This document shows, piece after piece, positions 296 to 20,688 of a DNA stretch of 29,210 nucleotides (position 1 is the first letter of the stretch; every line of letters starts with the position of its first letter). This DNA is from a bacterium (GTDB taxonomy: Bacteria > Zhuqueibacterota > Zhuqueibacteria > Oceanimicrobiales > Oceanimicrobiaceae), in the NCBI GenBank assembly GCA_037446635.1, contig JBBIIG010000052.1:1-29210 (forward strand), read 5' to 3'. A program made the translations under genes and the position numbers. A model generated the notes under the pieces. It made no database searches and was not told the origin of the DNA. It was given only the letters and a program-made list of their open reading frames with translations.

Positions 296-1204
296 ATGAT
301 TCAACGTAGATATATAATGTTGATCCTCGGCTGTTTTTTCCTGTGGAGCGGGAAAGTATATGCCGGGGCCTGGACGCTCAAGCGCGGCCAGCTCGGGGTG
401 AAGTTTTCATTGTCCTATCAAAAAACCGATGAACGCTATTACTCCAGAATAACCCCCTGTCCTCTTGGACATACCTGCACCAGAAGTGGTCAACGGGTTC
501 CATTTGCTTTTGATGGTGAAAGCCGATTCACCGGTCTGTTCGCTGACGTTAACTACGGTCTCACGGATGAAATCGAGTTTGATTTGCAAATTCCATTTTT
601 CGATATTGCTTTCACCGATGATGTTAATCCTCTCCGGCCTAAAACCGCAGACATTGGTGATATCCGCTTTGGACTGAGATACCGCTATTTATCGAGCCCG
701 GTAGTATCTACCTTAGCCATTGCCGCGAAAGCGCCGACCGGATTTTTTAATAAGGATGCAGAGGTGGTGCCCATTGGCGACGGTCAATGGGACCTTGAAT
801 TCATGGGAGAATTTGGAAAATCACTCTGGCCGGCTCCCGCTTATTTAAACTTGGATTTGGGTTATCGCATTCGATTCGCTCCCGATATCGCGACCTCCAA
901 CCGTGATCCTGGAAACGAATTTTTTTTCCGCGGTGAGGGAGGGTATCATCTCTTCAATAGCCTACTTTTCAAAATTGCCGTTAATGGGCTTTATGGAGCA
1001 AAATTTATTCAAAGTAATCTTGCGATACAGGATTCTCAGCGGCAGGTTTTATATTTTGAGTCTGGTGTTTTTTGGACGATAAAAAAACCCTTGGCCTTTG
1101 ACGCCTCCATACAATACACTCTTTCCGGTAAAAACTTTCCTGCCGGCGCCGTTTATAATGTTGGACTTTATTATTTGTTCTCTTTATGGTCTAAATCACG
1201 ATAA
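296..1204 (+). CDS. Secreted outer-membrane beta-barrel protein (transporter / MetA-pathway phenol-degradation-like family)
   Basis: Long ORF. ATG at 296 gives a signal peptide (MIQRRYIMLILGCFFLWSGKVYA-GAW). Amphipathic beta strands and family-like motifs GDIRFGLRY, KAPTG, IGDGQWD. Start codon uncertain (254/296/317). Confidence 0.7.
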   Translation: MIQRRYIMLILGCFFLWSGKVYAGAWTLKRGQLGVKFSLSYQKTDERYYSRITPCPLGHTCTRSGQRVPFAFDGESRFTGLFADVNYGLTDEIEFDLQIPFFDIAFTDDVNPLRPKTADIGDIRFGLRYRYLSSPVVSTLAIAAKAPTGFFNKDAEVVPIGDGQWDLEFMGEFGKSLWPAPAYLNLDLGYRIRFAPDIATSNRDPGNEFFFRGEGGYHLFNSLLFKIAVNGLYGAKFIQSNLAIQDSQRQVLYFESGVFWTIKKPLAFDASIQYTLSGKNFPAGAVYNVGLYYLFSLWSKSR

Positions 1205-1361
1205 GTTAAACGCCTGCCAGCAAGAGCCACCGTCACATCAATTTTGTCACGCCGAGTCGTTAATTAAAACATCGTTGAATTAATGGCTCGAAATTCAATT
1301 TAAAAATGAATTGGGAAATGCGGATAGGCGCCGGCGCGGGCCACCATCAGCTGAGATTTTG

Positions 1362-1405
1362 CGGGCGCAGACTTTTCATTTCGATTACTCTGCGCCCGTC
1401 TTTTC
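1362..1405. terminator. Probable intrinsic terminator between convergent genes
   Basis: 10-bp stem CGGGCGCAGA (1362-1371) / TCTGCGCCCG (1389-1398), followed by TCTTTT on the + strand; lies just past the stop of 1407..1982. Confidence 0.5.
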
Positions 1406-1406
1406 C

Positions 1407-1982
1407 CTACTGAATATTCACTGGAAAATCGATATCGATATCCGTCTCCGGACTGCGGGTGACGCCGTCTTTCGCAACTTCGTCGTAGTGGGCCAGAACC
1501 ACATTCAGCGTTCCCGATGCCGCCGGGCCGGCGGATACCGCCGCCGTAAATTCCAGGCCGATGGGAAGATTGTTGGCGTCGCGGTCCGTGATGGTCACGG
1601 TCACCCGAGCGGCAATGCCTCCCTCGGCAGTGTAGAAGAATTGATGCGCATCGGCTTCTTCTTCCACTTCCTCGGTAACATCTTCCGCTGGATTAACGCT
1701 CTCATTTAAAAGTTGAATCGCGCCGGTGTAAGTCTTACCAGCTTCCAAGGTCAACGTGCCGATGACCGGCGAATTGCCGCCGTCGCCGTCGAGGTCTTGA
1801 AATTGCGCAGTAACCTGGTTGGTTGTGCCGGTTTCGGTTAATGTCAGAATCACCGTGGTGATGAGTTCTTCTTCGCCGGGTCCGGCAGGATTTTTGTCGT
1901 CGCCGCAACCAAAATTGAACAACATCGCGCTAACGGTTAGGGCGAAAATCCAACGCAGTGATTTTTTGAAAATGGAATTCAT
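1407..1982 (-). CDS. Lipoprotein partner of the TonB-dependent receptor (acidic, His-containing, putative metal-binding)
   Basis: RBS AGGAGG before ATG 1982; lipobox FNFG-C26; motifs EEELITTV, EVEEEADAHQFFY and LNVVLAH resemble lipoproteins encoded after TBDTs in FCB-group bacteria. Confidence 0.85.
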   Translation of the reverse strand: MNSIFKKSLRWIFALTVSAMLFNFGCGDDKNPAGPGEEELITTVILTLTETGTTNQVTAQFQDLDGDGGNSPVIGTLTLEAGKTYTGAIQLLNESVNPAEDVTEEVEEEADAHQFFYTAEGGIAARVTVTITDRDANNLPIGLEFTAAVSAGPAASGTLNVVLAHYDEVAKDGVTRSPETDIDIDFPVNIQ

Positions 1983-2136
1983 GATTGAACCTCCTGTTGA
2001 AAGGTTAATGTGAAAGTGACGTAAGTTGACATCCGACTGAAAGACTTAGATGTTGATCAATGACAGCGCCAGTCCTTGACACTGACAATTTAATAATCGT
2101 GCAAAGTCGTTTTTTACCAAGGCGATGCCGGCTTAC

Positions 2137-2281
2137 TGTCATTTCGAGACGGAGCGCAGCGGAGTCGAGAAATTTGACGAAGAATTGCATCGGCGAATAC
2201 GCCCAGAGCTATTGGCATATTATGAGCCGTGCATCACCAGATTTCTCACCTCGACCAAAAGCGTCGAGCTGAGAAATGACA
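2137..2281. repeat. REP-like palindromic element (TGTCATTTC...GAAATGACA)
   Basis: 9-bp terminal inverted repeat plus inner GAGAAAT/ATTTCTC arms; same design as the element at 26620-26710. Confidence 0.7.
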
Positions 2282-2300
2282 CGAACTTTGGGCGGAATTC

Positions 2301-2636
2301 TCAGGCCAGAACCGTCGGCGGGGCGCGGGTGGAAAAGATGGAGAAAATATTTGCAGTAAGACTGGCGACGAGTCTCGGTGAGAAAATCAGCTCGATGAAA
2401 AACGGCGCGAAGCTGTAACGAGCGCACACCGTGCTCACGTTCAGCAGCGAGTAGGTGCATGCCCGGCAATCGAATCGCAGGGTTGGGTTACTCGGATTGG
2501 CGTCTGACCCGGCCTCATTTTCGACGAAGCTCACCGCGCCGCCAAACCCGTGCTGATGCGCCAGCTCGACCGTGCTCGAGAGCGCCAGCAAAATCACCGC
2601 TAACACCTGGGCGGTGACGGTTTTAAACTTTTTCAT
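2301..2636 (-). CDS. DUF2946/CruR-like leader protein 2 (signal-anchor, HxH, CxxC, RAPP), 111 aa
   Basis: ATG at 2636 with GAGGT RBS at 2641-2645; hydrophobic N-terminus, ELAHQH, CRAC, TRAPPTVLA-stop; colinear with 5182..5520. Confidence 0.8.
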   Translation of the reverse strand: MKKFKTVTAQVLAVILLALSSTVELAHQHGFGGAVSFVENEAGSDANPSNPTLRFDCRACTYSLLNVSTVCARYSFAPFFIELIFSPRLVASLTANIFSIFSTRAPPTVLA

Positions 2637-2713
2637 AGCAACCTCTGGTCTTGTCTTTGGCATTTCATTTATGACAAGGTGGATTAATGGATTGTTGCTG
2701 CATAGAGCAAAGT

Positions 2714-2741
2714 AAAAAAGGCGCCATGCGCTCTGCGCCTT
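2714..2741 (-). terminator. Probable intrinsic terminator after the TonB-dependent receptor
   Basis: Minus strand reads AAGGCGC-N10-GCGCCTT-TTTT, starting 3 nt after the TBDT stop codon. Confidence 0.55.
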
Positions 2742-2744
2742 GCC

Positions 2745-5090
2745 TTACGGCGCGAATTGGCCAAACGAGACCTGCATCCGCAAGACGACGTTGCGCCCCG
2801 GGTCGTCGATGAAGTAGCGAAATCGGCTGAGATAGTCGCGGTACGCCGTGTTGAATACATTGTTGACGCTGAGATAGATGAGGATCGGATGTCGTCCCAC
2901 TATGGTTTGCGTTCCCAATTCAAGATCCAGCAATTTGTATCCCGGCGGTGGATCGGTGTAATCGGCGTTGGCGGGCGCGCGATCCTGCCGCCGCACCAAA
3001 GTCGCCGAGATTTCGAAATAGGTATTTTCAAAACTCCCGAACGCCGGCAAATCGAAATGATTGATCCATTGCAGCCGATCGGACGGCATGAAGATCAACG
3101 GTTCATTGGTATCGAGATTGTCTGCTCGCACCGCTGAGGCCCGCGCCCCCAATCGGTAAAAGGCGAACAACTGATAATCGAACGTCAAATCGGCGCCGCG
3201 CAGCACCGCGTTGGCCTGACGATAACTAAACGCCGGAAACGCCCCGCGAATGGTTAAAATCGGCTCCGGCTCCGGGAACAGGAAAATAAAATCGTTGATG
3301 AAGTTGTTGTAAACGCTCAATTCGAGATGACTCTTTTGGCCCAGGTTGCGCAGCGTCGCATCTATGTTATAACTTTTCTCGGAGGTCAAGTTGGGATCGC
3401 CCTTTTCGTATTGCGCGGTGCCGTGGTGCACGCCGTCGCTGAACATTTCATTGACGCTGGGCGGCCGCCATGCCGTGCCGACGTTCACTGCCAGCGACCA
3501 CGCCGGCGCAAATTGATAGATCATCCCCACCACGGCGGAGACATTGTGCCAGTGGTTGATCTGCTCATCATCCGGATTCTGACGGAAGGCATACGCTCGC
3601 TGCCAGCGATAATCGAAGCGGCCGCCAAAGTTGAGGGTGAAATTTTCCTTTGTCCAATTCTCGAGGAGGAAAACGCCGAAGTTGTAGGCGCGAAAATTGG
3701 GAATCAAAAAGCCGCTGGTTTGCCGGAAGTTGCCCTGCCACATTCCGCTGACTCCAAACGTGCCGAAGAAATTTTTCACGGGTCGATGGCGGAATTTGAT
3801 GTCGCCGGAGTGGGTGTAGAGCTTGAGATCGAACGCGGCGTTTTTCGGCGGCTCAGATGAAAACGGAGAATGGGCGTCGAACTCCTGCCGGTGATTGAGT
3901 TGGAAACCGTACTGCGCCTCCAATTTTCCCAGCCCGATAAAATCCGACTGACCTTTGACCGAAATCAAGTCATGGCTGATCTTCTGCTTGGGCGGTTGGA
4001 TATCGTAGGTGAAATCTTTCTCCACCAGCGGCCGTCCGCGCTCGATGGCGTTTTGCAGATCCGTTAAGTTGCCAATATGCGAGCCGCGGAAAATTCCCAA
4101 CTCGGTTCCGAAATGACTGTAATAAAATTCAAGTTCCGATTGCTCGCGATGGTAGCCGGCCGCCAACGACCAGTCCCGCTCTTCAAAACCGGAGTTGTTG
4201 ATGACATAATCGGGCGCGCGCGCATCGCCAGCTTTGCGCAGACTGCCTTGCAGTCTCCAGCTCAAGCGGCTTATCCTCGGCGCGCGCCCTTCCAGAAGCA
4301 GCGACCCGGCGACCTGACGGTTGTTCGAGAAACCGTTGGCAAAAATCTGCCCGCCCAATCCTTGAATTGCCATCAATTGCCGCGGCTCCACGCGCACCAC
4401 CCCGCCGATGGCGTTGGAGCCGTACTCCACGCCGGCCGCGCCTTTCAGCACCTCGATTTTCGCCGGCGCAAAGGGATCGATCTCCGGCGCATGTTCGGCG
4501 CCCCATTGCTGGCCTTCCTGCGGCAGACCGGCATTCAGCACCAACACCCGCTGGCTGTGGAGCCCCCGCACGACTGGCTTAGAGATCGACGGGCCGGTTT
4601 GCAGCACGGTCACGCCGGGGATTTCTTTCAAGGTTTCGCTGAACGTCTGGCCGCGGTGCTTTTCCAGTTTTTCGGCGCTGAGAACCGTAACCGATTGACG
4701 GGAGCGCGTGAGCTCGACTTCCTCCTTGCTGGCGGTTACCGTCACTTCGGAAAATTCGATGACCGTGGGCGTCAAATAAAATTTCTTTTCGAGATTGCCG
4801 GTGATTTCTATGCTTTCCTTCACCTCCGTGTATCCCACAAAGCGACAGACAATGGTGTAGCTTCCTTTCGTCAATCTTTTTAATTGAAATTCACCATTGG
4901 CATCCGCGACATCGCCGCGATTCAGTTCCGCTATATAAATCGTGGCGCCGGGCAGTGGATGGTTGGTGGCGGCGTCGAGCACTTTTCCGGAAACAGCGGC
5001 CAGTTCGCTTTCCGGCGTGGCTGGCAGTCGCGCCGCAAAACTTAAGAGCAATAACAAAATTGTAAGCCGAGGTTTGAATAACCTGGTCAT
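2745..5090 (-). CDS. TonB-dependent outer-membrane receptor, probably for a transition metal
   Basis: Signal peptide; N-terminal carboxypeptidase-regulatory-like domain (SGKVLDAATNHPLPGATI); TonB-box-like EVTVTA; plug motifs (IPGV, KPVVRGL, IEVLKGA..EYGSNAIGGVV); barrel end NNVFNTAYRDYLSR..PGRN; His motifs GAEHAPE, GSHIGN, GVHHGTA. Confidence 0.95.
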   Translation of the reverse strand: MTRLFKPRLTILLLLLSFAARLPATPESELAAVSGKVLDAATNHPLPGATIYIAELNRGDVADANGEFQLKRLTKGSYTIVCRFVGYTEVKESIEITGNLEKKFYLTPTVIEFSEVTVTASKEEVELTRSRQSVTVLSAEKLEKHRGQTFSETLKEIPGVTVLQTGPSISKPVVRGLHSQRVLVLNAGLPQEGQQWGAEHAPEIDPFAPAKIEVLKGAAGVEYGSNAIGGVVRVEPRQLMAIQGLGGQIFANGFSNNRQVAGSLLLEGRAPRISRLSWRLQGSLRKAGDARAPDYVINNSGFEERDWSLAAGYHREQSELEFYYSHFGTELGIFRGSHIGNLTDLQNAIERGRPLVEKDFTYDIQPPKQKISHDLISVKGQSDFIGLGKLEAQYGFQLNHRQEFDAHSPFSSEPPKNAAFDLKLYTHSGDIKFRHRPVKNFFGTFGVSGMWQGNFRQTSGFLIPNFRAYNFGVFLLENWTKENFTLNFGGRFDYRWQRAYAFRQNPDDEQINHWHNVSAVVGMIYQFAPAWSLAVNVGTAWRPPSVNEMFSDGVHHGTAQYEKGDPNLTSEKSYNIDATLRNLGQKSHLELSVYNNFINDFIFLFPEPEPILTIRGAFPAFSYRQANAVLRGADLTFDYQLFAFYRLGARASAVRADNLDTNEPLIFMPSDRLQWINHFDLPAFGSFENTYFEISATLVRRQDRAPANADYTDPPPGYKLLDLELGTQTIVGRHPILIYLSVNNVFNTAYRDYLSRFRYFIDDPGRNVVLRMQVSFGQFAP

Positions 5091-5181
5091 ATTTACCTCG
5101 TTGAGAAAAATGAAAAAATGCTAAGCTAAACCAGCGTCGGTTTGGCCTGGACACAAAGCACTGAAGTTGTTGAGCAGGAAA

Positions 5182-5520
5182 TTAAGCGGGTTGAAGAGGA
5201 GGAGCGCGGTTAGAAACCGATGATTGAATCAGAATGGCAACAGGATTGTGAGTGTGGGATTTAAAAGCACAAGATTCAAAATGGGGAGAGAATAAATCGC
5301 ACTTGATTTCTCCAGATAGGTTGACGGTGGCGACCATGCACGCGAGGCAGACGAAAACGTGGATCGGCCGCTGCGCTGTCTCCGCGGCGTCATGGTTGGC
5401 GCTCACCGCCGCGGAGTCGTCCACCGGCGCGTGGCGATGACTCAGCTCGGCAGCGCCTGCCAGAAAAATCAGCGCGATCAAAATCGCCGTTGCGGTTGGT
5501 TTTCGCCCGTTACTTTTCAC
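5182..5520 (-). CDS. DUF2946/CruR-like leader protein 1 (signal-anchor, HxH, CxxC, RAPP), 112 aa
   Basis: GTG start; hydrophobic N-terminus, ELSHRH, CLAC, NRAPPLQPA-stop; ends 91 nt upstream of the TBDT start. Confidence 0.85.
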   Translation of the reverse strand: MKSNGRKPTATAILIALIFLAGAAELSHRHAPVDDSAAVSANHDAAETAQRPIHVFVCLACMVATVNLSGEIKCDLFSPHFESCAFKSHTHNPVAILIQSSVSNRAPPLQPA

Positions 5521-5546
5521 AAATAGCTTTTGGTTTAATTGGCTGC

Positions 5547-5576
5547 AATATAAGTATTGTCAGGAGAAAAGATCAA
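5547..5576 (-). promoter_or_regulatory. Putative sigma70-type promoter for the leader-TBDT unit
   Basis: TTGATC-N18-TATATT on the minus strand, -10 box 26 nt upstream of the GTG; a short CAATA-N4-TATTG inverted repeat overlaps the -10. Confidence 0.4.
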
Positions 5577-5946
5577 GCAAAACTTTTTTATCCAAAAAAA
5601 CGAGTGTAACAAACAAAATTTTTTTTAGAATTTTTCTCCACTTTTAAAACGTAGTTGCTAATATAGCTTTGTGTAGCTGATTCCATTCTTGTTTGCTATT
5701 AACATTTCATATCCGAGGGAGGGTAAGATTATACCAGGTAAGGAATTTTTGATCGGACTATAAATATTCCTTCAACCATTTCTGGGGGAAATGTTTGATC
5801 GCAATATTATAAGTTCGCCGGACATCGTGCACTGCAACAAGGGGAGATATGATATTGCACAACACTTTCCAGGGGCAACCGCCCTTCCTCAGGATGGAAA
5901 CCCTTCTGCGCGTCTCGTTTTCCATTCCAACAAATACATTTAATTC

Positions 5947-5980
5947 AAGCTCTGGGTGAACTACGTCCGGGGCTTTTTGT
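5947..5980 (+). terminator. Terminator-like hairpin in the 5' region of the 1433-aa gene (possible attenuator)
   Basis: AAGCTCTGGG (5947-5956) / TCCGGGGCTT (5966-5975) stem with G-U pairs, followed by TTTGT; about 45 nt before ATG 6023. Confidence 0.45.
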
Positions 5981-6022
5981 GTTTCTACGGGGGGTGAATC
6001 TTTTAGCGATAGAGGAGGATGT

Positions 6023-9000
6023 ATGTCACACAAACGTTATCAATTTTTGACGATTCTACTGGCTCTGGTTATTTTTGCAGCCAGTGGCAACACGCAACCG
6101 CCGGAGCACAATTTCGTTCCGCCGGTGGCCATCGGGCCGCAGAATCTCTCGTTTGGGGACGACGGGGTACACGAATTTTTAACTCAGGAAGGCACCTTGA
6201 AAGGCGACATCGGCGGAATCGTAGCGGGTCAAGAATACTGGGTTTATATTTGGGGAATTGACGCCAGTGGCGTGTCCGGGCTGCCGGGCCGCCGCGTTCG
6301 CTTTCATCTGCAAGACTCTGAAAATGGCTCGTCATTTAAACATCTCGGCATTAGCCTTTCGTTGCAAAACTCCCAGGCTGGCGGCGCCGATTTGCTGGAG
6401 TGTTATCAAGGAATCGGTTCGACGGTTGATGGCACCTCAACCCATGCTTTGGGGATCGGCTCAACTTCCCAAAAATTCGATCTACGCTTTCGCTTTACCA
6501 AAGACGAGGCTAGTGATCCCTGGTATGTTGAACCGTTTTTCAGGTTAAACGAAGGTGAATGGACATTGTTCAGCGTTGGACCATTCACCACTTCCGAAAA
6601 TAATGCGTTCGATTTCCTGGGCGCGAAGTTAGTGGTGATTTTTGACAACGGCGCCAACAGCAATGCCGAGGTTTCCTTCGACAACTTTTTCGTGGTCGGC
6701 CCCATTCAGGATTTTTCCGAGATTTTTGTAGATGATGATTGGGCTGATTTTGAGCCTGGTGACGTGGTGCAATTCCCCGGACGGTTCAATGTACAAATCA
6801 TCGGGCAGAATGCTTTCGATACCATTCAGGAGGGTATTAATAAAATTCAAGTGCCAGAGCAAGCGCCGATCTCTGCCATTTCCAGCGCCAATCAATTGAA
6901 TTTGGTGGATAACGGCCCCTCTCTCGCCACCGTGCACGTGGCCCCCGGCAGGTATTTCGAGAATCTCCAGATTTACTATCCCATGATCATTGAAGGCGGG
7001 GGCAGCGGCGAGGACGAGGAAACCAACACCATCATCGATGGCGATGGGAGTGATGTTATTTCTATTGACGGCTTGGCCAGCGGTTTTTCAGAAATCGATC
7101 GTTTGGTGCTGCGCAATCTGCGTGTGACCAACGGCGGTTCCAGCGGCAGCGGTATTTTTATGACCTTCCTCGAACAGACTCAAATTGCCAACTACAAAAC
7201 CAGCCGCACGAATTCTCTGAACGGCATTAGCACCGCAGACGCCGATTTCGCCCACATGACCTTTGAAAATATAGCGGCCGTCAACAACCTCAATGGCATC
7301 GCGTTTGAGTCCGGCAGCGTGGCCGATATCGAGGTCATCAACTGCGATTTATCGAACAATGAAAACAGCGGCTTCCGCATCGCCTCAAATGTTGACTCGT
7401 TTGACGGTCTCAACATGGAGGGCTGCACGGTCAACGATAACGGCATCAACGGTCTAACGACCGGCCCCAGTGGGTCGCAAAATGTAACCAATATTCATCT
7501 CAGCAATTGCGCGTTTTCCGGAAACGGCGACGCCCTTTCGCAATCCGGGATGGGGTCGGGCGACATCAGCTTGTTTCAGTTCAACGGCGATGCCGTGCTT
7601 ACCAATGTGAGCATTCACGGCGACGGGGCGCATATTGGTTTGCAAATTCGCGGCGATGATGAAGGGGGATTATTTCGAGCCGGAGCCGTTGATCTGGATA
7701 GCGTCATCATTTCGGGTATGTATCAGCACCCAAGCACCTGGGTTGGTTCCGGTATTTATATCAGCGGTTACAGCGATGTCAGCACCATCAGTTTTAACGA
7801 CGTGGAAATCGATATTACTCCGGTTCCGGGAAGCACGCCTGCCATCAACCTCAATTTGGAAAATATTTTTGGCAACCTTGACATCGGCAACACCAAATTG
7901 GGCGGCAACGCCTCGGTGGATATTCTAAACAACTCCGCCGCCGCGGTGGATGCCATAGACGCCGAGTTTATAGAGGCCGACAATAATTTTGAAATTGAAG
8001 ATCGCATCGTGCACGCCATTGATTTGGAAGTGATCCCGGGAAATGTTATTCAGCACAAGCCAAAAGGTAGTTTGCTGCCGCAAATTAACCTGAATATTGA
8101 ATCCGCGTTTGGTCTGGTGACCTGGGTAGTGGACAATGTGTTTATGACGCCGAATAGTTTTGCCGAACCCCTTACTTTTGCTCCCAGCATCCAGCGCGCC
8201 ATCAACGCGGCCTCGCCGGGGGATACCCTTAATATTGCCCCCGGTAATACTTACTCCGATGCCCCGAACATTTACATCTATAAAGATCTGGTGATTATTG
8301 GCTCCGGGCCGGAGCAGACCGTCATCAACTCTGGCGGCTCAACCGGTACACTCGAGCTCGATCCTTACTGGTTTGAGGTTTTTGATACCGCAAGCGTTCA
8401 TATTCGCGACATCGCTTTTGACGGCGGCGAGAACTGGACGTACTATGCTTTTCAAATGGACGGTACTGGTTCGTTCACGAATGTTCATTTCAATAATATT
8501 GTTTATGATGAATATGAGGGCACGGCCATCCGGGCGTCCGGCAGCGGTCCGGTGCATGTCACCAACTGCACTTTCACCAACATTGGCCGCGCCGGCGTGT
8601 GGTATTCCGGCTCGAGCGTCAACGGTTCGTTGTACAAACGCAGCACCTATACGGGCAAGGGCAACGGCGAGGAGGAAGAAGAATACATCGATTTCGCGGT
8701 GGTGGTGGATGGCGGCGCGCACGTCACTATCGATAGCAGCGCGGTTTCCAATAACTACGGAAATATTTTGGGAGAGGAATTTTCCGCCGGTTATCTGGTG
8801 AGGGATGGCGGCACGAATGTGACCATCAAAAACAGTGAAATCGGCTACAGTTATCACGGCATTCGCTTGGAATCGGGCGAGGGCAGCCCGTTTGTAATTA
8901 TCACCAACAATGATATTGATGGCTGTGAGATCGGCGTCGAAGTGGAGTCCGCGCTTTACGTGCGCGTGCAGCAAAACGACATCACCAATAACCACACCGG

Positions 9001-10324
9001 CGTGAATTTGAATAACATCACCACTACGTTCGATGTAGATTTAAACACCTTTTTAGATAATGAAAATTACGGTGTCCGCGTGACCAATGCCCCCGATGGT
9101 GAAATCAAAGACAACATCATTTCGGGGAGCACGACCGGAGTAGAAATCCAAGAGAATGCCGGCGCTACTAAAATCAAGCGCAACGAATTCTGCGACAATT
9201 CTTCCTTCGCCGTTAGAAATGTAAGTAGCGTGGTAGTTGACGCCACTAATAACTGGTGGGGTGCTCCTAGTGGGCCTGGCGGCGCTGGCCCCGGTATTGG
9301 TGATGCGGTAAGCGAAGACGTGGATTTTTCGCAGTTTAAGACCAGTCCCCTCTTTCCTGAATCGCCTTGCATCGAAGGATGTATCGGTGATGGCGATGTT
9401 GAAGACGACGATGAGATCACCCCACAAGATGCGCTCAATGCTTTCAATATTTCGTTAGGAGAAAATACTACCATTGGAGAGGGGTCGAGCTGCGAAATGA
9501 TTGCATCTGATGTAAACTGTGACGGAGAGGTAACGCCTCAGGATGCTTTGGATATTTTCTTACGTTCTCTTGGCGACTTGCCACAACCTGAGGAATGCTT
9601 TGCGCAGGATAGCTCACCGCTTAACAAACAGAGTTCAGCTTATTTGTATTCTCTTTCATTAATTCAGATAACAGCAGAGAATGAGCAGATCAAGATTGCA
9701 GTGGTTGTTGACAATGCAGTGGGGCTTGATGCATTTGGTTTGACTTTTCAGTACCCCGTGGATAAGTTTGAATTTGTGAACATTGAGCGCGCCGCATTAA
9801 CAACTGCTTGGGCTCAACTGAATGCTCGTATTTATGAGGGCGGTAAACTCATTGTTGGCGCGTTTGATATGAAACCTTTAGCCGGTACCTTACCCAGCGA
9901 GTTATTCCATCTCGTCTTTAAGCTAAAGAAAGAAGATGTCCGGCTTAATGAGATCCAAATTGTCAAATTGGTAGCAGATTTAAAAGGAGCTTTAGTTAAT
10001 ATCCCAGTATCCGATCCCATTAATTTGATACCGACGGCCTTTAGCCTGCACCAGAACTTTCCCAATCCATTCAATCCCGAAACCCACATTCGCTTTGACA
10101 TTCCCAAAGTGAGCAACGACGGTGTATTGGTGAGTCTTAAAATTTACAACATTACCGGTCAGCTCGTACGCACCTTGTTGAATGAGAAACGCGAAGCAGG
10201 TGTCCATACGGTTACTTGGGATGGCAAAAATGATTTGGGACAACCGGCTGCAAGCGGAACATATTTTTATACCCTTATAGCTGGTGAATTTAAGAGTAGT
10301 CAAAAAATGATCATGGTAAAATAG
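6023..10324 (+). CDS. Large secreted protein: right-handed parallel beta-helix repeats, dockerin-like domain, cohesin-like domain, FlgD-Ig/T9SS-like C-terminal domain
   Basis: GGAGG RBS; signal peptide; AFDTIQEGIN..VHVAPGRY and SIQRAINAA..GDTLNIAPG beta-helix caps; DATNNWWG; duplicated GDVEDDDEITPQDAL / DVNCDGEVTPQDAL; cohesin-like AFGLTFQYP..LFHLVFK; QNFPNPFNPET..WDGKNDLG C-terminus. Confidence 0.9.
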   Translation: MSHKRYQFLTILLALVIFAASGNTQPPEHNFVPPVAIGPQNLSFGDDGVHEFLTQEGTLKGDIGGIVAGQEYWVYIWGIDASGVSGLPGRRVRFHLQDSENGSSFKHLGISLSLQNSQAGGADLLECYQGIGSTVDGTSTHALGIGSTSQKFDLRFRFTKDEASDPWYVEPFFRLNEGEWTLFSVGPFTTSENNAFDFLGAKLVVIFDNGANSNAEVSFDNFFVVGPIQDFSEIFVDDDWADFEPGDVVQFPGRFNVQIIGQNAFDTIQEGINKIQVPEQAPISAISSANQLNLVDNGPSLATVHVAPGRYFENLQIYYPMIIEGGGSGEDEETNTIIDGDGSDVISIDGLASGFSEIDRLVLRNLRVTNGGSSGSGIFMTFLEQTQIANYKTSRTNSLNGISTADADFAHMTFENIAAVNNLNGIAFESGSVADIEVINCDLSNNENSGFRIASNVDSFDGLNMEGCTVNDNGINGLTTGPSGSQNVTNIHLSNCAFSGNGDALSQSGMGSGDISLFQFNGDAVLTNVSIHGDGAHIGLQIRGDDEGGLFRAGAVDLDSVIISGMYQHPSTWVGSGIYISGYSDVSTISFNDVEIDITPVPGSTPAINLNLENIFGNLDIGNTKLGGNASVDILNNSAAAVDAIDAEFIEADNNFEIEDRIVHAIDLEVIPGNVIQHKPKGSLLPQINLNIESAFGLVTWVVDNVFMTPNSFAEPLTFAPSIQRAINAASPGDTLNIAPGNTYSDAPNIYIYKDLVIIGSGPEQTVINSGGSTGTLELDPYWFEVFDTASVHIRDIAFDGGENWTYYAFQMDGTGSFTNVHFNNIVYDEYEGTAIRASGSGPVHVTNCTFTNIGRAGVWYSGSSVNGSLYKRSTYTGKGNGEEEEEYIDFAVVVDGGAHVTIDSSAVSNNYGNILGEEFSAGYLVRDGGTNVTIKNSEIGYSYHGIRLESGEGSPFVIITNNDIDGCEIGVEVESALYVRVQQNDITNNHTGVNLNNITTTFDVDLNTFLDNENYGVRVTNAPDGEIKDNIISGSTTGVEIQENAGATKIKRNEFCDNSSFAVRNVSSVVVDATNNWWGAPSGPGGAGPGIGDAVSEDVDFSQFKTSPLFPESPCIEGCIGDGDVEDDDEITPQDALNAFNISLGENTTIGEGSSCEMIASDVNCDGEVTPQDALDIFLRSLGDLPQPEECFAQDSSPLNKQSSAYLYSLSLIQITAENEQIKIAVVVDNAVGLDAFGLTFQYPVDKFEFVNIERAALTTAWAQLNARIYEGGKLIVGAFDMKPLAGTLPSELFHLVFKLKKEDVRLNEIQIVKLVADLKGALVNIPVSDPINLIPTAFSLHQNFPNPFNPETHIRFDIPKVSNDGVLVSLKIYNITGQLVRTLLNEKREAGVHTVTWDGKNDLGQPAASGTYFYTLIAGEFKSSQKMIMVK

Positions 10325-10380
10325 TAGCAATTTAATTTGTCAAAGGTTAAGAATATCTACTCAAATAAGGAGAGGTACTT

Positions 10381-11445
10381 ATGCAAAGAGATTATATTTT
10401 ATTGCCGATACTCATGGCTTGTCTGTTTTTCAGCTTTTCATCGGCTCTAATTGCTCAACCTTCTCAATTTGACCTGAGTCCGCCGCTAAGTGTTGATGCC
10501 GGTTCGACACCAGGAGCTGTCGTGCCCATTCCAATTACTCTTACCAATACCCTTGGCGTTCAAGTCGATGCATTTAAATTTAAATTCTTATATCCAGCTG
10601 AACTGCTCACCTTTCAGGGACTTGAAACCACCGGAACACTCACTAATGGTTGGACAACAGTCAAGGACTCATTAATAGCAGACGGGAATGTTAACATTAA
10701 TGGTTTTGATTCTGAGGGAGGTACAACTTCATCGGGTGTTTTGGTTATAGTAAAATTTCTAACAACCAGTACATCAGGATCGGACTCGCTCAAACTCACT
10801 AATTTTGTAAATGATATTGCTAGCGCCACATCCACACCCGGTATGCTCAATAGTTCCGTACCCGTAGAACTCGTATCCTTCTCCGCCAACGTCGTCGAAA
10901 ACACCGTGCGCCTGAGCTGGGCCACCGCCAGCGAAACCAACAATTTTGGTTTTGACGTCGAAAAAAGCGGAGACGGCCTGCTGTTCGCAAAGATCGGATT
11001 TGTGCCGGGTAACGGCACCACAACCGTTCCGCAGTCCTACTCGTTCGCGGAAAGCAATGTCAGCCCGGGTAAATACTTTTATCGTTTAAAACAAATCGAC
11101 ACCGACGGCGCGTTCGAGCACTCCAACGTCATCGAAGCCACGGTGCTGCCGCCGTCGCGGTTTAGTTTGTTTCAGAATTATCCCAATCCTTTCAATCCTG
11201 AGACGCGCATTCGGTTTGACATCCCCAATCTGCTGGGCGAGAAAGTGCGGGTGCAGCTCGCCATTTACAATCTCTTCGGGCAATTGGTGCGGACGTTGGT
11301 GAACGAAGAGCGCGGCCCGGGTGTGCACGAAATCAACTGGGACGGCCGCAGCGACGAGGGGATGGTGGCGCCGTCAGGCGTATATTTTTACACGGTGCGC
11401 GCCGGCGAGTTTAGAGAGACAAAGAAGATGCTGTTTGTCAGATAG
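10381..11445 (+). CDS. Secreted cohesin-domain protein with PVEL/FN3-like module and FlgD-Ig/T9SS-like C-terminal domain
   Basis: AGGAG RBS; signal peptide; cohesin-like PGAVVPIPITL..AFKFKFLYP..GVLVIVKF; PVELVSFSA..LSWATASETNNFGF..YYRLKQID-type module; QNYPNPFNPET. Confidence 0.9.
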   Translation: MQRDYILLPILMACLFFSFSSALIAQPSQFDLSPPLSVDAGSTPGAVVPIPITLTNTLGVQVDAFKFKFLYPAELLTFQGLETTGTLTNGWTTVKDSLIADGNVNINGFDSEGGTTSSGVLVIVKFLTTSTSGSDSLKLTNFVNDIASATSTPGMLNSSVPVELVSFSANVVENTVRLSWATASETNNFGFDVEKSGDGLLFAKIGFVPGNGTTTVPQSYSFAESNVSPGKYFYRLKQIDTDGAFEHSNVIEATVLPPSRFSLFQNYPNPFNPETRIRFDIPNLLGEKVRVQLAIYNLFGQLVRTLVNEERGPGVHEINWDGRSDEGMVAPSGVYFYTVRAGEFRETKKMLFVR

Positions 11446-14740: not shown

Positions 14741-17700
14741 ATGACGAACGACACTTACCAAACTCTCGCTCAAATACTCAGAACGCGAATTATGGTGATC
14801 GACGGCGCGATGGGAACGATGATCCAACGCTACAAATTGACCGAGGACGATTTCCGCGGCGCGCCATTCAAAGATCATCCGCACCCGTTGAAAGGTGACA
14901 ACGATCTGCTGTCGCTGACCCAGCCGGAAATTATCAAAGAAATCCATCGCGAGTATTTGAAGGCCGGCGCCGATATCATCGAGACCAACACCTTCAACGC
15001 CACCGCCATCTCGCAATCCGATTATCATCTCGAAGATAAAATTTATGAGATGAATTTTGCGGCCGCAAAAATTGCAAAAGAAGCCGCGGCGGAATTCACC
15101 GCGAAGAATCCGGATAAACCGCGCTTCGTGGCCGGTGCGTTGGGGCCGACGAACAAAATGCTGTCGCTGTCGCCGGATGTCAACAATCCCAGCTTTCGCG
15201 CCGTTACGTTCGATCAAATGGCGGCGGCCTATCGCGAACAGGCGCGCGGCCTCATCGACGGCGGCGCCGACGTCCTGCTGGTGGAGACCATCTTCGACAC
15301 CCTCAACGCCAAAGCCGCGCTCTTCGCCATTCAGCAGCTTTTTCGTGAAATCGGCCGCACCCTGCCGGTGATGATCTCGGGCACCATCGTCGACGCCAGC
15401 GGCCGCACGTTATCGGGACAAACTCCGGAGGCCTTTTGGGTTTCGGTTTCGCACACCAAAAATCTGCTCAGCGTCGGACTCAACTGCGCCCTCGGCTCGC
15501 AAATGATGCGGCCGTATATCGAAGAAATTTCGCGGGTGGCGAATTGCTTCACGAGTCTCTATCCCAACGCCGGCTTGCCCAACGAATTCGGCGGCTACGA
15601 TGAGACGCCGGAATTCATGGCCGAGCAAATCGCCGATTACGCCCGCAGCGGCTTCGTCAATCTCGTCGGCGGCTGCTGCGGCACCACGCCGGATCACATC
15701 CGCGCCATCGCCGAAGCCGCGGCGCAATTTCCACCGCGGCAGATTCCAGAGATCAAACCCTACTTGCGGTTGAGCGGACTCGAGCCGTTCACGTTGCGAG
15801 CGGACACCAACTTCGTCAACATCGGTGAGCGCACCAACGTTGCGGGCTCTACCAAATTCCGCGATCTCATTCTCGCCGGCGATTTCGAAGCGGCGCTCTC
15901 CGTAGCGCGACAGCAAGTAGAAAACGGCGCGCAGATGATCGATGTCAACATGGACGAAGGCATGCTCGACTCCGAAGCCGCGATGGTGAAGTTTCTGAAT
16001 TTCGCCGGCGTCGAGCCGGAGATCGCGCGCGTGCCGGTGATGATCGATTCCTCCAAATGGTCGGTCATCGAAGCCGGGCTGAAATGCCTGCAGGGCAAAG
16101 GCGTGGTCAACTCGATCAGCTTGAAAGAGGGCGAGGAAATTTTCAAAGAGCACGCCCGCAAAATTTTGGACTACGGCGCGGCGGTGATCGTCATGGCCTT
16201 CGACGAAAAAGGTCAGGCCGACACCTTCGCGCGCAAGATCGAGATCTGCCAACGCGCGTACAAAATTCTCACCGAGGAAGTTGGCTTCCCGCCGCAGGAC
16301 ATCATTTTCGATCCCAACATCCTCACCGTCGCCACCGGCATCGAGGAGCACAACCACTACGCGGTGGATTACATTCGCGCCACGCGGTGGATCAAAGAAA
16401 ATCTGCCGCTGGCGAAAGTGAGCGGCGGCGTCAGCAACATTTCGTTTTCGTTCCGCGGCAATAATCGCGTGCGCGAAGCCATGCACTCGGCGTTTCTCTA
16501 TCACGCCATTCAGGCCGGCATGGACATGGGCATTGTCAACGCCGGGCAAATTGAGGTATATGAAGAAATTCCCAAAGACCTGCTCGAGCTCGTGGAAGAC
16601 GTGCTGCTCAATCGCCGTCCCGACGCCACCGAGCGGCTGGTGGCGTTTGCGGAGAACATCAAGCGCGGCGACAAAGTTGCGGTCGAAGAAGATGCTTGGC
16701 GCAAGACTAGTGTCGAAGAGCGGCTGAAGCACGCGCTGGTGAAAGGCATCGTCGATTTCATCGAAGCGGATACCGAAGAGGCGCGCCAGAAATATCCGAC
16801 TCCGCTGGCGGTCATTGAAGGCCCGCTGATGGACGGCATGAACATCGTCGGCGATCTGTTTGGTTCCGGCAAAATGTTTTTGCCGCAGGTGGTGAAAAGC
16901 GCGCGGGTGATGAAAAAATCCGTGGCGTATCTCGTGCCGTTCATCGAAGCGGAAAAAGCCAAACTGTCAGCGGAGCTGATCCGCTCCGGCGGAAAAGATG
17001 CGCGGCCACGGGCCAAGGTGTTGCTTGCCACCGTCAAAGGGGACGTGCACGACATCGGCAAAAACATCGTCGGCGTGGTGCTGGCGTGCAACAATTTCGA
17101 AGTGATCGATCTCGGGGTGATGGTGCCGTGCGAAAAAATCTTGCAGACCGCAAAAGAGCAGAAGGTGGACATCATCGGCCTGAGCGGACTTATCACGCCG
17201 TCGCTGGATGAGATGGTGCACACCGCCGCGGAGATGGAACGGCTGGGCTTCACGCTGCCGTTGCTCATCGGCGGCGCCACGACGTCGCGGGTGCACACGG
17301 CGGTGAAGATTGCGCCGAATTATCGCGGCCCGACCATCCACGTGCTCGATGCTTCGCGCGGCGTGACGGTGGCAAACAATTTGATCACCGATAATCAGCG
17401 CGAGACGTTTCTCAACGAAGTGCGTGCCGAGTACGAAAAAGTCCGTGACGAACATCAGCGCAAACAGGAGTCGAAAACTCTGCTAACGCTGGCGCAGGCG
17501 CGCGCCAATCGGCTGAAGATTGATTGGCAGAGGTCGGAGATCACGCCTCCGAAAAAGTTGGGTGTCACCGTTCTCAAAAATTATCCCCTCGCGGAGATTC
17601 GCAATTACATCGATTGGACGCCGTTTTTTATCACGTGGGAACTCAAGGGGCGCTACCCGCAAATTTTAGAAGACGAAAAAATCGGCGAAGAAGCGCGCAA

Positions 17701-18448
17701 GCTTTTCCGCGACGCCAACAAACTTTTGGATGACATCATCGCCAAAAAGCTGCTGCGCGCCAACGCCGTGTTCGGACTCTTCCCGGCCAACGCCGTCGGC
17801 GATGACATCGAAGTGTTCTCCGACGATTCCCGCCAAAAAGTGCGGACGATCTTTCACACGCTGCGCCAGCAAACGGAGAAAACCGGCGGCAATCCCAATC
17901 TTGCGCTGGCGGATTTCATCGCGCCGAAAGATTCGGGACGGAATGATTACCTCGGCGCGTTTGCCGTCACCGCTGGCCTCGGCGCGGATGATCTCGTGAA
18001 AAAATTCGAACAGCAGCATGACGATTACAACGCCATCATGGTGAAAGCCCTTGCCGACCGCCTCGCCGAAGCCTTTGCCGAGCTGCTGCACGAGAAAGTC
18101 CGCAAAGAATTCTGGGGCTACGCCGCGGATGAAAATCTCAGCAACGACGATCTCATCAAAGAAAAATATCGCGGCATTCGTCCCGCGCCCGGCTATCCCG
18201 CCTGTCCCGATCACACCGAGAAGCGGCTGCTGTTCGATCTGCTCGCGGTGGAAAAGAACGCCGGCATCACCCTCACCGAAAACTTCGCGATGCTGCCGGC
18301 GGCATCGGTCTCCGGACTTTATTTCGCCCATCCCGAGGCGAAATATTTCACGGTGGGAAAAATCGCAAAAGATCAGGTGGTGGATTACTCTCAGCGCAAA
18401 GGCATGAGTCTGTCTGAGGTGGAGAAGTGGCTGCGGCCGAATACGTGA
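14741..18448 (+). CDS. metH: Cobalamin-dependent methionine synthase
   Basis: [24 protein letters not shown] (Zn/homocysteine domain), NIGERTNV (folate domain), [20 protein letters not shown] (B12 domain), [12 protein letters not shown] (activation domain). Confidence 0.98.
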
Positions 18449-18787: not shown

Positions 18788-19444
18788 ATGCACAAGATGG
18801 ATTCGCAACCGAACCGCAATCTCCCGGAGACCGCTCTCATCGGGCTCAGCGACCACGATGTCGAGTGCTTGCTGGAATTAGCCCAAACCGGAGATTCCGC
18901 TGCCAAAGAACGACTGCTGGGGTGGGCCTATTTCACCGCGCACCGCTACTATCGACTCAAAGTCCCCGCGGAAAAGGCGCTGTCCGCGGAAGATGCCGAG
19001 GAATTGACTACTGCTTTTTTTCTGGAATTTGAGAGTAATCTGCCGCAATTACAATGCGCCACCCGCTATACCCGCTACGTCCTCAAGCAGAATCTGCGGC
19101 GCTATTTGAGGCGCAAAAGAATGCGTCGATGGCGCGCGGGATGGCCTTTGCACAACGTGGAGAAAAGCTCCGCAGCCGCTGTTGCAGATGAGCCCGGGTC
19201 GCCCTGGATGGCCTGGAGCGACGAGGACTTTTTCCAGTACCGCGCGGTGCTGCAAGCCCTCCATGAAACCGATGACACCACGCGGCGGGTCATACAATTT
19301 CGACTGGAAAACCCACCTTTGCCTTACCTGGAAATTGCGGCGCATTTAAACCTGTCGGAGACCGCCATTCGTATGCGCGTAACGCGATTCTACAGTCTGG
19401 TTCGCAAAATCTATGTTACTTTGACCAGAGGTCGTTCCCTATAA
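18788..19444 (+). CDS. ECF-type RNA polymerase sigma factor (divergent)
   Basis: Region 2-like LLELAQTGDSAAKERL..AEDAEELTTAFFL..NLRRYLRRKR; region 4 HTH YLEIAAHLNLSETAIRMRVTR. Start may be 18797. Confidence 0.85.
   Translation: MHKMDSQPNRNLPETALIGLSDHDVECLLELAQTGDSAAKERLLGWAYFTAHRYYRLKVPAEKALSAEDAEELTTAFFLEFESNLPQLQCATRYTRYVLKQNLRRYLRRKRMRRWRAGWPLHNVEKSSAAAVADEPGSPWMAWSDEDFFQYRAVLQALHETDDTTRRVIQFRLENPPLPYLEIAAHLNLSETAIRMRVTRFYSLVRKIYVTLTRGRSL
19414..19443 (+). promoter_or_regulatory. Putative ECF promoter, copy A (TGTTAC-N17-CCCTATA)
   Basis: Both boxes and the spacing are identical at 24304 and 24390; overlaps the sigma stop codon and ends 41 nt before the next ATG. Confidence 0.7.
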
Positions 19445-19484
19445 CAAGTAGGAACGCCGGATTGATGAATGGAGAAGACGGCCA

Positions 19485-20279
19485 ATGAAAAAACAGACAC
19501 TCGATTCCCGCACAATTGAGCGGATGCTGCGGCTGGCCCATACTCCGCCGGACGACGCACTTTTGCGGCGCTATTTCAACGCGTGCGCCGGAAAAGATGA
19601 CGGCTCCGCGCTGACGGATGCAGAACGGCGCTGGCTGACGGTGAATCTGGATGCAAATCCCAATTGGCAGCAAAAGTGGAAAGAACTGGAAAAGGAAATC
19701 GGCCATTCGGTGGATTGGCGGCGGCAGGCGCGGTTTCCGCAGGCTGCGGTCAAGTCTGAGCCGGTGGTCAAACCCCGCTTCTTTGAGGAATGGCTGCCGC
19801 GGGTTCAGCCGCAGTGGGCCTTCCGGCTGGCCTTCGCTGCCGTGGTGTTGGCGGCTTTGTATGGAACCCTGTGGCTGGTGGGGAGATGGGGTCTTCCGAA
19901 AACCTATGAACTGGCATCCGTGGCGAGCCATGAAGAATTTTTGAATGTTCGCGTGCGCGGAGAGTCGGTTGCAGCCGAAGCCGAGTTTGCCGCCGGCGCA
20001 GAGGCACTGCTCAGCGCACCGAAAGATTGGCTTGGACTGTTTCCCCACTACGATCGCCAAAAGGTGGACGTGGCCATCGTCCTTTTGACGCGGGCGTTTG
20101 AAGCCACGGACGATCCATTTCAACGCGCCGAGATCGCGTTTTTTCTCGCCAAAGCATATTTGATGAAAGATGAAATCACCGGCGTTAAACGCTGGCTGAA
20201 CGAAGCGCTGGCTCAAAATGTGGCGGATTATCGGAGAGAGGCAACTGAGCTGCTGAAAAAATTAGCGGAGAAAAATTGA
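19485..20279 (+). CDS. Putative membrane-anchored anti-sigma factor with C-terminal TPR-like helices
   Basis: Directly follows the ECF gene; N-terminal LLRRYF..LTDAERRWLTVNLDANPNW resembles an anti-sigma domain without Zn ligands; one TM helix (LAFAAVVLAALYGTLWLV); TPR-like AFFLAKAYL..WLNEAL..EATELLKKL. Confidence 0.7.
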   Translation: MKKQTLDSRTIERMLRLAHTPPDDALLRRYFNACAGKDDGSALTDAERRWLTVNLDANPNWQQKWKELEKEIGHSVDWRRQARFPQAAVKSEPVVKPRFFEEWLPRVQPQWAFRLAFAAVVLAALYGTLWLVGRWGLPKTYELASVASHEEFLNVRVRGESVAAEAEFAAGAEALLSAPKDWLGLFPHYDRQKVDVAIVLLTRAFEATDDPFQRAEIAFFLAKAYLMKDEITGVKRWLNEALAQNVADYRREATELLKKLAEKN

Positions 20280-20303
20280 ATAATTAAATCTGCTCGCTCA
20301 ACG

Positions 20304-20597
20304 TCACATATCTGAAGTTACTCTGAATTTGTCGGAAGTTAAGTGCATCCTTACCCCTAAGGCGTAGCAAACTTTCAAGAAAGCCTTGATATTGAAATTC
20401 GATCCCTTTTCAATCTTCGAAAGTTGTTGTTGTGTTATTTGCGCTTTGCTGGCGAGTTGGGATTGGGTTAAGCCTGCTTTCTTTCTCTCTTCAAAGATTC
20501 TATTTGATAATTGAAGTAATTGGATCTCTTCTTCATACATTTCTTTGAATTCTTTGTCCTTGAGCTTTTCCTCTAAATGTTCATTGAGTGTCTTCAT
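20304..20597 (-). CDS. XRE-family HTH protein, HigA-like antitoxin
   Basis: LEEKLKDKEFKEMYEE N-terminus and ERKKAGLTQSQLASKAQITQQQLSKIEKG HTH; AT-rich relative to neighbours. Confidence 0.85.
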   Translation of the reverse strand: MKTLNEHLEEKLKDKEFKEMYEEEIQLLQLSNRIFEERKKAGLTQSQLASKAQITQQQLSKIEKGSNFNIKAFLKVCYALGVRMHLTSDKFRVTSDM

Positions 20598-20677
20598 CGG
20601 CGATACCCCTTTGAATATCTTTCGAGAAAATCATCACGATATTTTATTGCTCTTTTTATTTCTGATTTCGGAATCTT
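20594..20677 (-). pseudogene. 3' remnant of a RelE/HigB (Gp49-like) toxin gene
   Basis: Reads KIPKSEIKRAIKYRDDFLERYSKGYRR-stop, typical of a Gp49/HigB C-terminus; its stop overlaps the antitoxin start (ATGA); only 11 nt separate it from the CHAT stop codon. Confidence 0.7.
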
Positions 20678-20688
20678 GAACTCAAGAA

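Follow-up and report, generated by a model that had tools for sequence, protein, structure and literature searches.

Two RAPP leader peptides, each preceding one cargo gene, in a likely zinc-uptake gene cluster of an Oceanimicrobiaceae bacterium

In the literature searched, metal sensing by a nascent chain has been shown for copper only, with the leader peptides CruR and CutF. CruR (Bp2923, DUF2946/PF11162) precedes the TonB-dependent copper transporter BfrG/CrtA in Bordetella pertussis; relief of its arrest permits Rho termination at a site within a C>G bubble, DUF2946 genes were reported to stand first in operons, and bfrG mRNA was moderately affected by zinc (PMC9426467). Arrest of CruR at its RAPP motif has been demonstrated in vitro in a study that reported TonB-linked RAPP open reading frames (ORFs) to be widespread (PMC12992588). 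CutF of Rhodobacter capsulatus is described as a small exported leader with a Cys/His motif and a Pro-rich tail that acts on the next gene, and the survey of CutF-like proteins spans Bacteroidota and TonB neighbours, with non-copper members already proposed (PMC9973294; bioRxiv 10.1101/2025.02.05.636593). In Caulobacter, a Zur-activated zinc efflux operon is headed by a DUF2946 gene (PMC4176598). Here we describe a gene cluster in a 29,210-nt stretch of DNA (contig JBBIIG010000052.1 of assembly GCA_037446635.1; hereafter the window) that likely serves zinc uptake and contains two RAPP leaders, each preceding one cargo gene. The leader type itself is already known; a probable link to zinc and a second leader placed inside the operon were not found discussed in the literature searched.

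Leader 1, a TonB-dependent receptor, leader 2 and a lipoprotein follow one another on the minus strand (Table 1), and this order held, with its coordinates, when the ORFs of a preliminary description of the locus were re-checked. The motifs listed there could be read directly in both leaders: an N-terminal hydrophobic segment, either cleaved or anchored, EL-x-H-x-H (ELSHRH in leader 1, ELAHQH in leader 2), F-x-C-x-A-C (FVCLAC and FDCRAC), exactly 43 further residues, and RAPP four residues before the stop codon. With 112 and 111 aa, both fall within the size limit of CruR/CutF-like leaders that have an export signal or membrane segment (<150 aa), and their CxxC-RAPP distance agrees with the conserved spacing of such leaders (45, plus or minus one or two residues). 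The likeness to CruR comprises the export-type N terminus, the CxxC at fixed spacing to RAPP, a 3′ C>G stretch, a long spacer and the receptor gene behind. Unlike CruR, the window leaders carry an invariant His pair, have a spacing of 43 rather than 45 and do not match PF11162, and their operon contains a ZnuD-like receptor and an internal second leader. CutF differs more, with CxxxC and PPP motifs, copper induction via a stem-loop and a detoxifying enzyme behind it; a CutF-type stem was not found for leader 1. Leader 1 starts with GTG and has no visible Shine-Dalgarno sequence, and the ATG of leader 2 is preceded by GAGG, with a further in-frame ATG at 2663. The two leaders are indeed paralogous, as had been proposed (29% identity over 102 aa, E = 8e-8 by BLASTP), but a recent tandem duplication of leader 1 was not supported, since, at 25% identity, they resemble other family members as much as one another.

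Conservation in the family extends beyond the residues used for its selection. Forty-three of 48 leaders found by rule in receptor-bearing loci and their relatives were aligned, the five omitted being mostly near-copies of included rows, and H28, C58, C61, R105, P107 and P108 were invariant in all 43; CxxC and R[AGS]PP had been selection criteria and His had not. A leader profile retrieved 3,125 proteins (E ≤ 0.001) from a library of 1.84 billion representatives. The best 150 of these all kept the equivalents of the first His, C58, C61, R, P and P, residues that a profile search favours; 138 had a His pair (HxH or HxxxH) and 148 a C-terminal R[AGS]PP, and the CxxC-RAPP spacing across 148 library matches was 40-45 (45 in CruR). 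When CxxC was dropped from the rule, 94 short ORFs with a hydrophobic segment and a C-terminal R[AGS]PP were found in 194 loci, part of which had been chosen for having a leader, and every one of the 94 had a His after the hydrophobic segment. Five control motifs yielded 0, 2, 0, 0 and 0 ORFs in the same loci, indicating that the leader pattern is not due to chance.

The preliminary description had likened the leaders to DUF2946 upstream ORFs. A hidden Markov model search with this family (gathering cut-off 23.7 bits) matched neither leader 1 nor leader 2; the third leader of the same genome scored 18.1 bits, 12 of the 43 relatives reached E ≤ 0.1, and among 40 tested library matches 10 reached E ≤ 0.01 and one exceeded the cut-off. 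By score the leaders are therefore outside this family; judged by sequence, they are a divergent His-bearing branch of CruR/CutF (DUF2946-like) leaders that grades into DUF2946. Searches of Pfam and NCBIfam gave no match for the leaders or the lipoprotein except one weak repeat, and the closest named relatives carry the depositor labels KSB1 or Calditrichaceae. A scan of the source genome for C-terminal R[AGS]PP returned 72 of 46,189 open frames, three of which had the leader pattern by eye, and a profile search likewise found three leaders. The third (contig C97, L098:5511-8214) also has a CxxC-RAPP spacing of 43 and heads a ZnuA/ABC-3 operon, in which it is followed by an unnamed outer-membrane-type protein of 428 aa and a binding protein of the ZnuA family. 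A plasmid search with the third leader gave no match.

The genes behind the leaders point to zinc. The best solved relative of the receptor is ZnuD of Neisseria meningitidis (PDB 4RDR; E = 2.9e-39, against about 1e-18 for OprC). The zinc ligands of ZnuD are reported as Asp99, His100, Glu340 and His499 (PMC6288298). Counted along the alignments, receptor H200 corresponds to His100 and is present in 115 of 116 homologues, and H555 corresponds to His499 and is present in all 116; H373 was nearly invariant too. The Asp99 position is occupied by Glu. Unlike ZnuD, to which its identity is low, the receptor has an extra N-terminal carboxypeptidase-regulatory-like domain. It had been called His-rich, which was not borne out (19 His in 781 aa), so the argument for zinc rests on a few invariant His residues. 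Within the bacterial class of the source genome, leaders were found in 33 of 125 genomes. Among 41 distinct class-level leaders, 23 preceded one outer-membrane-type protein family, 12 the receptor (one cut short), two the lipoprotein and four other genes; of the 23 outer-membrane-protein loci, 20 contained a ZnuA-family protein and 18 an ABC-3 permease, several of the stretches being truncated by contig ends. Three of the 171 loci with a receptor or lipoprotein had the outer-membrane protein/ZnuA module next to the receptor/lipoprotein module. In two loci of Gemmatimonadales (L034, L039), the outer-membrane protein, ZnuA-type protein, permease, leader, receptor and lipoprotein are uninterrupted, the leaders having a single Cys, not CxxC. 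Where CruR/CutF leaders have copper-related genes downstream, we thus found a ZnuD-like receptor and ZnuA/ABC-3 operons instead, in agreement with the earlier suggestion of a metal other than copper.

The published RAPP/RGPP upstream ORFs, which include the ApdA/ApdP motif and belong to the same C-terminal motif class as the window leaders, allow a comparison of the His pair. In the source data of that study, the pair followed the hydrophobic segment in all nine of the listed rows with a zinc-annotated receptor downstream and stood at the end of this segment in none of 26 copper-linked rows, three of which had later His runs and five a single His (counted by eye; the copper rows were the first 13 of about 600 and the first 13 of about 750). 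Its supplementary rows include RAPP leaders before zinc-annotated receptors and before the present lipoprotein family, and the words ‘zinc’, ‘tandem’, ‘two uORF’ and ‘same operon’ do not occur in its main text (PMC12992588). The likely metal of the leaders is zinc, and the His pair is likely their specificity determinant; manganese, cobalt and nickel are less likely candidates. That the leaders sense copper as CruR does, or nickel, cobalt, manganese or a different metal each, seems to us unlikely. In favour of these readings, CruR uses CxxC as its copper motif, His-only CutF-like clusters are linked to Ni/Co genes (PMC9973294), and leaders 1 and 2, at 25% identity, could differ in their metals. 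Near 167 loci, scanned with one member per cluster, copper genes (PCuAC near three loci and SCO near four) were found, as were a Fur-family gene near 24, a CobW-type GTPase near three and FeoB near four; L094 has a MerC gene. Against copper, the receptor resembles ZnuD rather than OprC, and the His pair missing from the copper-linked rows is present in the zinc-annotated rows and in most family members. The source genome has a single Fur-family match (L160, contig C13), which may mean that it has no separate zinc repressor.

We next consider how the leaders would act. The CruR/CutF scheme places a C>G bubble at the 3′ end of the leader in a host with Rho, and the source genome encodes Rho above the cut-off. 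Among 118,858 genome windows, the C>G stretch of leader 1, at its RAPP codons, is in the top 0.23%, that of leader 2 in the top 1.7% and that of the third leader in the top 0.35%. Across 79 leaders, the C/G ratio climbed from about 1.1 to a peak of 2.5 in the 30 nt preceding the Arg codon, and by 60 nt past this codon it had fallen to 1 again. Intrinsic-terminator-like features were found 3′ of 35 of the 79 leaders, compared with 13.2 in shuffles and seven on the reverse strand, under loose criteria, and could possibly mark a pause site; such a feature was present for leader 1 and absent within 110 nt 3′ of leader 2. The 91-nt spacer after leader 1 folded no better than shuffles (z = 0.07).

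We consider it about an even proposition that the cluster is one zinc-uptake transcript with two CruR-type arrest leaders in series, each shutting the genes behind it when zinc is plentiful. When zinc is scarce, the ribosome would halt at RAPP and shield the C-rich site, and transcription would continue; when zinc is present, the ion would be bound by the His pair and the two Cys, the chain would be drawn out of arrest as it folds, and transcription would be terminated by Rho. At a distance of roughly 46 residues or more from the peptidyl-transferase centre, these ligands would already have left the tunnel. Only transcripts that extend past leader 1 allow leader 2 to be translated, so lipoprotein expression would depend on two checks in series, with a zinc threshold steeper or lower than that of the receptor. 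We infer that both leaders stall, sense metal, respond in this direction and act in series. An engineered construct provides a precedent, in which an arrest peptide was released by zinc-dependent His2Cys2 folding (PMC4571824). Our wider suggestion, that thousands of leaders are natural, ribosome-based His2-Cys2 zinc sensors, placed as cassettes repeatable within an operon, with serial checkpoints setting a distinct threshold for the lipoprotein, is tentative and rather less probable than not.

Several observations weigh against this reading. The RAPP codons and a Ser/Pro/Thr-rich tail force C, so that the C>G stretches are partly codon-forced; the excess at synonymous sites was modest (C/(C+G) of 0.60 versus 0.50-0.53), and the tail exceeded the downstream gene in 47 of 77 cases. 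The pull of the engineered zinc finger was maximal at 24-26 residues, not 43 (PMC4571824), and the AlphaFold model of leader 1 was poor (pLDDT 60) and uninformative on a metal site. On the metal, the Glu340 region of ZnuD falls outside the receptor alignment, the NCBIfam scores are all far under cut-off (ZnuD, 134.5 bits against 950), the ZnuA/ABC-3 families carry manganese and iron too, and the copper genes near some loci count here as well. A weak hairpin with a U run stands ahead of leader 2. The four-gene order occurs in two genomes only, the window and L001; their leader 2 copies are 20% identical (leader 1 copies 24%, receptors 64%), and in a tree of 45 leaders 27 of 42 inner branches were unresolved and the leader 2 branch was long.

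The same sensors could have a translational output of the SecM/CutF type, in which the parked ribosome opens a stem hiding the next ribosome-binding site; CutF itself acts in this mode (PMC9973294; bioRxiv 10.1101/2025.02.05.636593). In the third leader, the final codons pair with the next Shine-Dalgarno sequence in a long stem (opening cost lowered by 8.3 kcal/mol, p = 0.1), and 14 of 18 short-spacer loci were above their shuffled mean for occlusion of this site. However, p ≤ 0.1 was reached in only 5 of the 18, and leader 1 was negative with the reverse sign (-3.1 kcal/mol). The test left out leader 2, which lies 318 nt from its gene, and 19 loci with spacers >135 nt. We regard this mode as improbable for the window. 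Taken together, the C>G stretches, the presence of Rho and the occlusion, hairpin and repeat results favour one transcript with two Rho checkpoints that is off with metal.

Whether leader 2 lies on the receptor transcript was judged from the DNA between the two. Transcription might instead stop after the receptor and leader 2 head its own transcript, in which case two ordinary one-leader modules would have been joined. The hairpin and U run after the receptor, which had been described as terminator-like, would suit this arrangement; the element exists, but it is absent from the output of a terminator scan, folds like shuffles (z = -0.25) and has as its core a dispersed repeat word with 11 sites at ≤2 mismatches, so its role as a terminator is doubtful. 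A leader directly 5′ of the lipoprotein is common elsewhere, and leader 2 is as near to other members as to leader 1. Against parallel units, a promoter-like site ahead of leader 2 was not found in the window, and the L001 copy of leader 2 overlaps the stop codon of the receptor gene and is therefore on the receptor's transcript. Receptor and lipoprotein also share their closest full-locus relative, L001 (genome G007). We therefore think that separate transcripts are not probable and retain the single transcript as the preferred reading. Of the two leaders, leader 1 follows the first-in-operon rule of DUF2946 genes; leader 2 stands inside the operon, barring a promoter of its own. The candidate promoter ahead of leader 1 is not significant alone, because the scan gave 8 sigma-70-type sites compared with 6.6 in shuffles; in many relatives, promoter-like elements were seen by eye at a similar position ahead of the first leaders. 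The hairpin 3′ of the lipoprotein likely marks the end of the transcript. An Rfam search of positions 1000-6100 gave no match at E ≤ 5, indicating no known riboswitch in the spacers, and no common operator was seen 5′ of the leaders by eye, without a motif finder. The spacer before the lipoprotein was rejected as a conserved regulatory RNA, since about 147 nt of it is a genome-wide repeat and the remainder scored 60 against the L001 spacer with a shuffle mean of 60. A second dispersed repeat family of the genome (window 2680-2697) forms arrays of an 8-nt unit at >100 sites.

The order leader-receptor-leader-lipoprotein proved unusual, as had been supposed. In 171 surveyed loci, the receptor lay within 1.5 kb before the lipoprotein in 94, or 92 without two stretches sampled twice, and a leader stood between them in 2 of the 92, the window and L001, both in the source family. 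A leader ahead of the receptor was found in 48 of 76 loci with enough DNA, weak calls included. One leader before this receptor is thus the norm, and the extra leader before the lipoprotein is family-specific among the sampled loci. Two of 21 genomes of the source family had the receptor (E ≤ 1e-60), both with two leaders; in a same-genus genome (G001), the lipoprotein is at a contig end and uninformative on leader order. In the ten further class genomes of the survey, no leader stood between receptor and lipoprotein. Where the receptor was missing upstream, a leader lay within 900 nt 5′ of the lipoprotein in 15 of 59 loci, showing that a leader before the lipoprotein is a common module in other lineages. 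Two leaders on the same strand occurred in 6 of 194 loci (the window, L001, L004, L039, L094 and L131). Together with the leader-lipoprotein modules, these other layouts indicate that one leader per module is a recurring design. No test of a zinc-sensing RAPP leader turned up in the literature searched, nor a description of two RAPP leaders in one operon or a characterisation of this receptor-lipoprotein pair; supplementary neighbour tables may list zinc-linked or double leaders.

The other two-leader layouts vary. L004:2779-7151 reads leader, receptor, lipoprotein, leader and second lipoprotein paralogue. L094:4214-12584 (G055) reads leader, receptor, lipoprotein, MerC, leader and ABC ATPase, with a same-strand PCuAC gene upstream, and gives mixed copper/zinc hints. 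In L131:8350-9421 (G049), two adjacent leaders 400 nt apart, the first with its second His missing, are followed by two DUF5916/CBM9 proteins and an ABC pair. Loci L051-L074, mostly labelled Saprospiraceae, have receptors without a leader call and a Fur-family gene near at least one (L059); a repressor may possibly have been swapped for the leader there.

Two further explanations are, in our judgement, very unlikely: that leader 2 is a relic, or that the leaders monitor export or thiol state instead of metal. A repeat is inserted behind leader 2 and its branch is long, as a relic might show; however, leader 2 has kept all motifs and the exact spacing (E = 1e-28 on a profile that includes leader 2 itself), and an intact second leader occurs in another genus. 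The RAPP peptides ApdA/ApdP are reported to monitor secretion, but the downstream genes that could be named here are all metal-related, the rest being unknown.

The lipoprotein would be a metal-binding partner of the receptor. It has 260 relatives, and H113 and H165 were invariant, with acidic residues, among 45 aligned; no Pfam family matched. The relatives bear the database name ‘type 1 periplasmic binding fold’, an alpha/beta two-lobe fold, and the model of the lipoprotein is nearly all beta (pLDDT 89). A fold search gave Ig-like domains as the best, generic matches (Z = 7.3, rmsd 2.9, 91 aligned); none reached Z ≥ 8, and no periplasmic-binding protein was among the best 50.

If the proposed reading is true, a zinc version would extend arrested-chain sensing to a second metal and allow a copper/zinc leader swap test, and two leaders per transcript would mean that arrest peptides can be stacked for graded expression within an operon. 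A compact test set is offered by a single genome, whose three diverged paralogues share the same spacing but each precede a different target.

Table 1. Features of the two-leader cluster in the window
Feature	Position	Strand	Details
Candidate sigma-70-type promoter of operon	5547..5576	-	27 nt before leader 1 start; 9/12 consensus matches
Leader 1, 112 aa	5182..5520	-	H28/H30 (5439-5431), C58/C61 (5349-5338), RAPP 105-108 (5208-5197)
C>G stretch at leader 1 RAPP codons, candidate Rho loading site	5176..5253	-	28 C, 8 G in 78 nt
Hairpin and U tract in 91-nt spacer 3′ of leader 1, candidate pause/release site	5110..5161	-	-11.4 kcal/mol, loose criteria
TonB-dependent receptor, ZnuD-like, 781 aa	2745..5090	-	H200, H555, H373
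Weak hairpin and U run 3′ of receptor	2713..2741	-	Hairpin 2741-2718; 7 bp, 10-nt loop, -10.5 kcal/mol
Leader 2, 111 aa	2301..2636	-	H27/H29 (2558-2550), C57/C60 (2468-2457), RAPP 104-107 (2327-2316)
C>G stretch at leader 2 RAPP codons, weaker candidate Rho loading site	2295..2372	-	29 C, 14 G in 78 nt
Dispersed palindromic repeat, about 147 nt	2135..2281	.	Within 318-nt spacer before lipoprotein; >20 BLASTN matches elsewhere in source genome
Lipoprotein, 191 aa	1407..1982	-	Cys26; invariant H113 and H165; Ig-like beta-sandwich predicted
Strong hairpin 3′ of lipoprotein	1362..1398	-	-25.2 kcal/mol, z -5.7, 0/200 shuffles equal

Elsewhere in the window, a Phenol_MetA_deg-family barrel (242-1204) is convergent on the operon, and positions 6023-11445 encode two adjacent secreted FlgD-Ig proteins with weak matches to dockerin (E = 0.007) and cohesin (E = 0.028) that stay below threshold. 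A B12-dependent methionine synthase (14741-18448) and an ECF-like sigma factor beside a TPR-CHAT protein (18788-23769) are also encoded.

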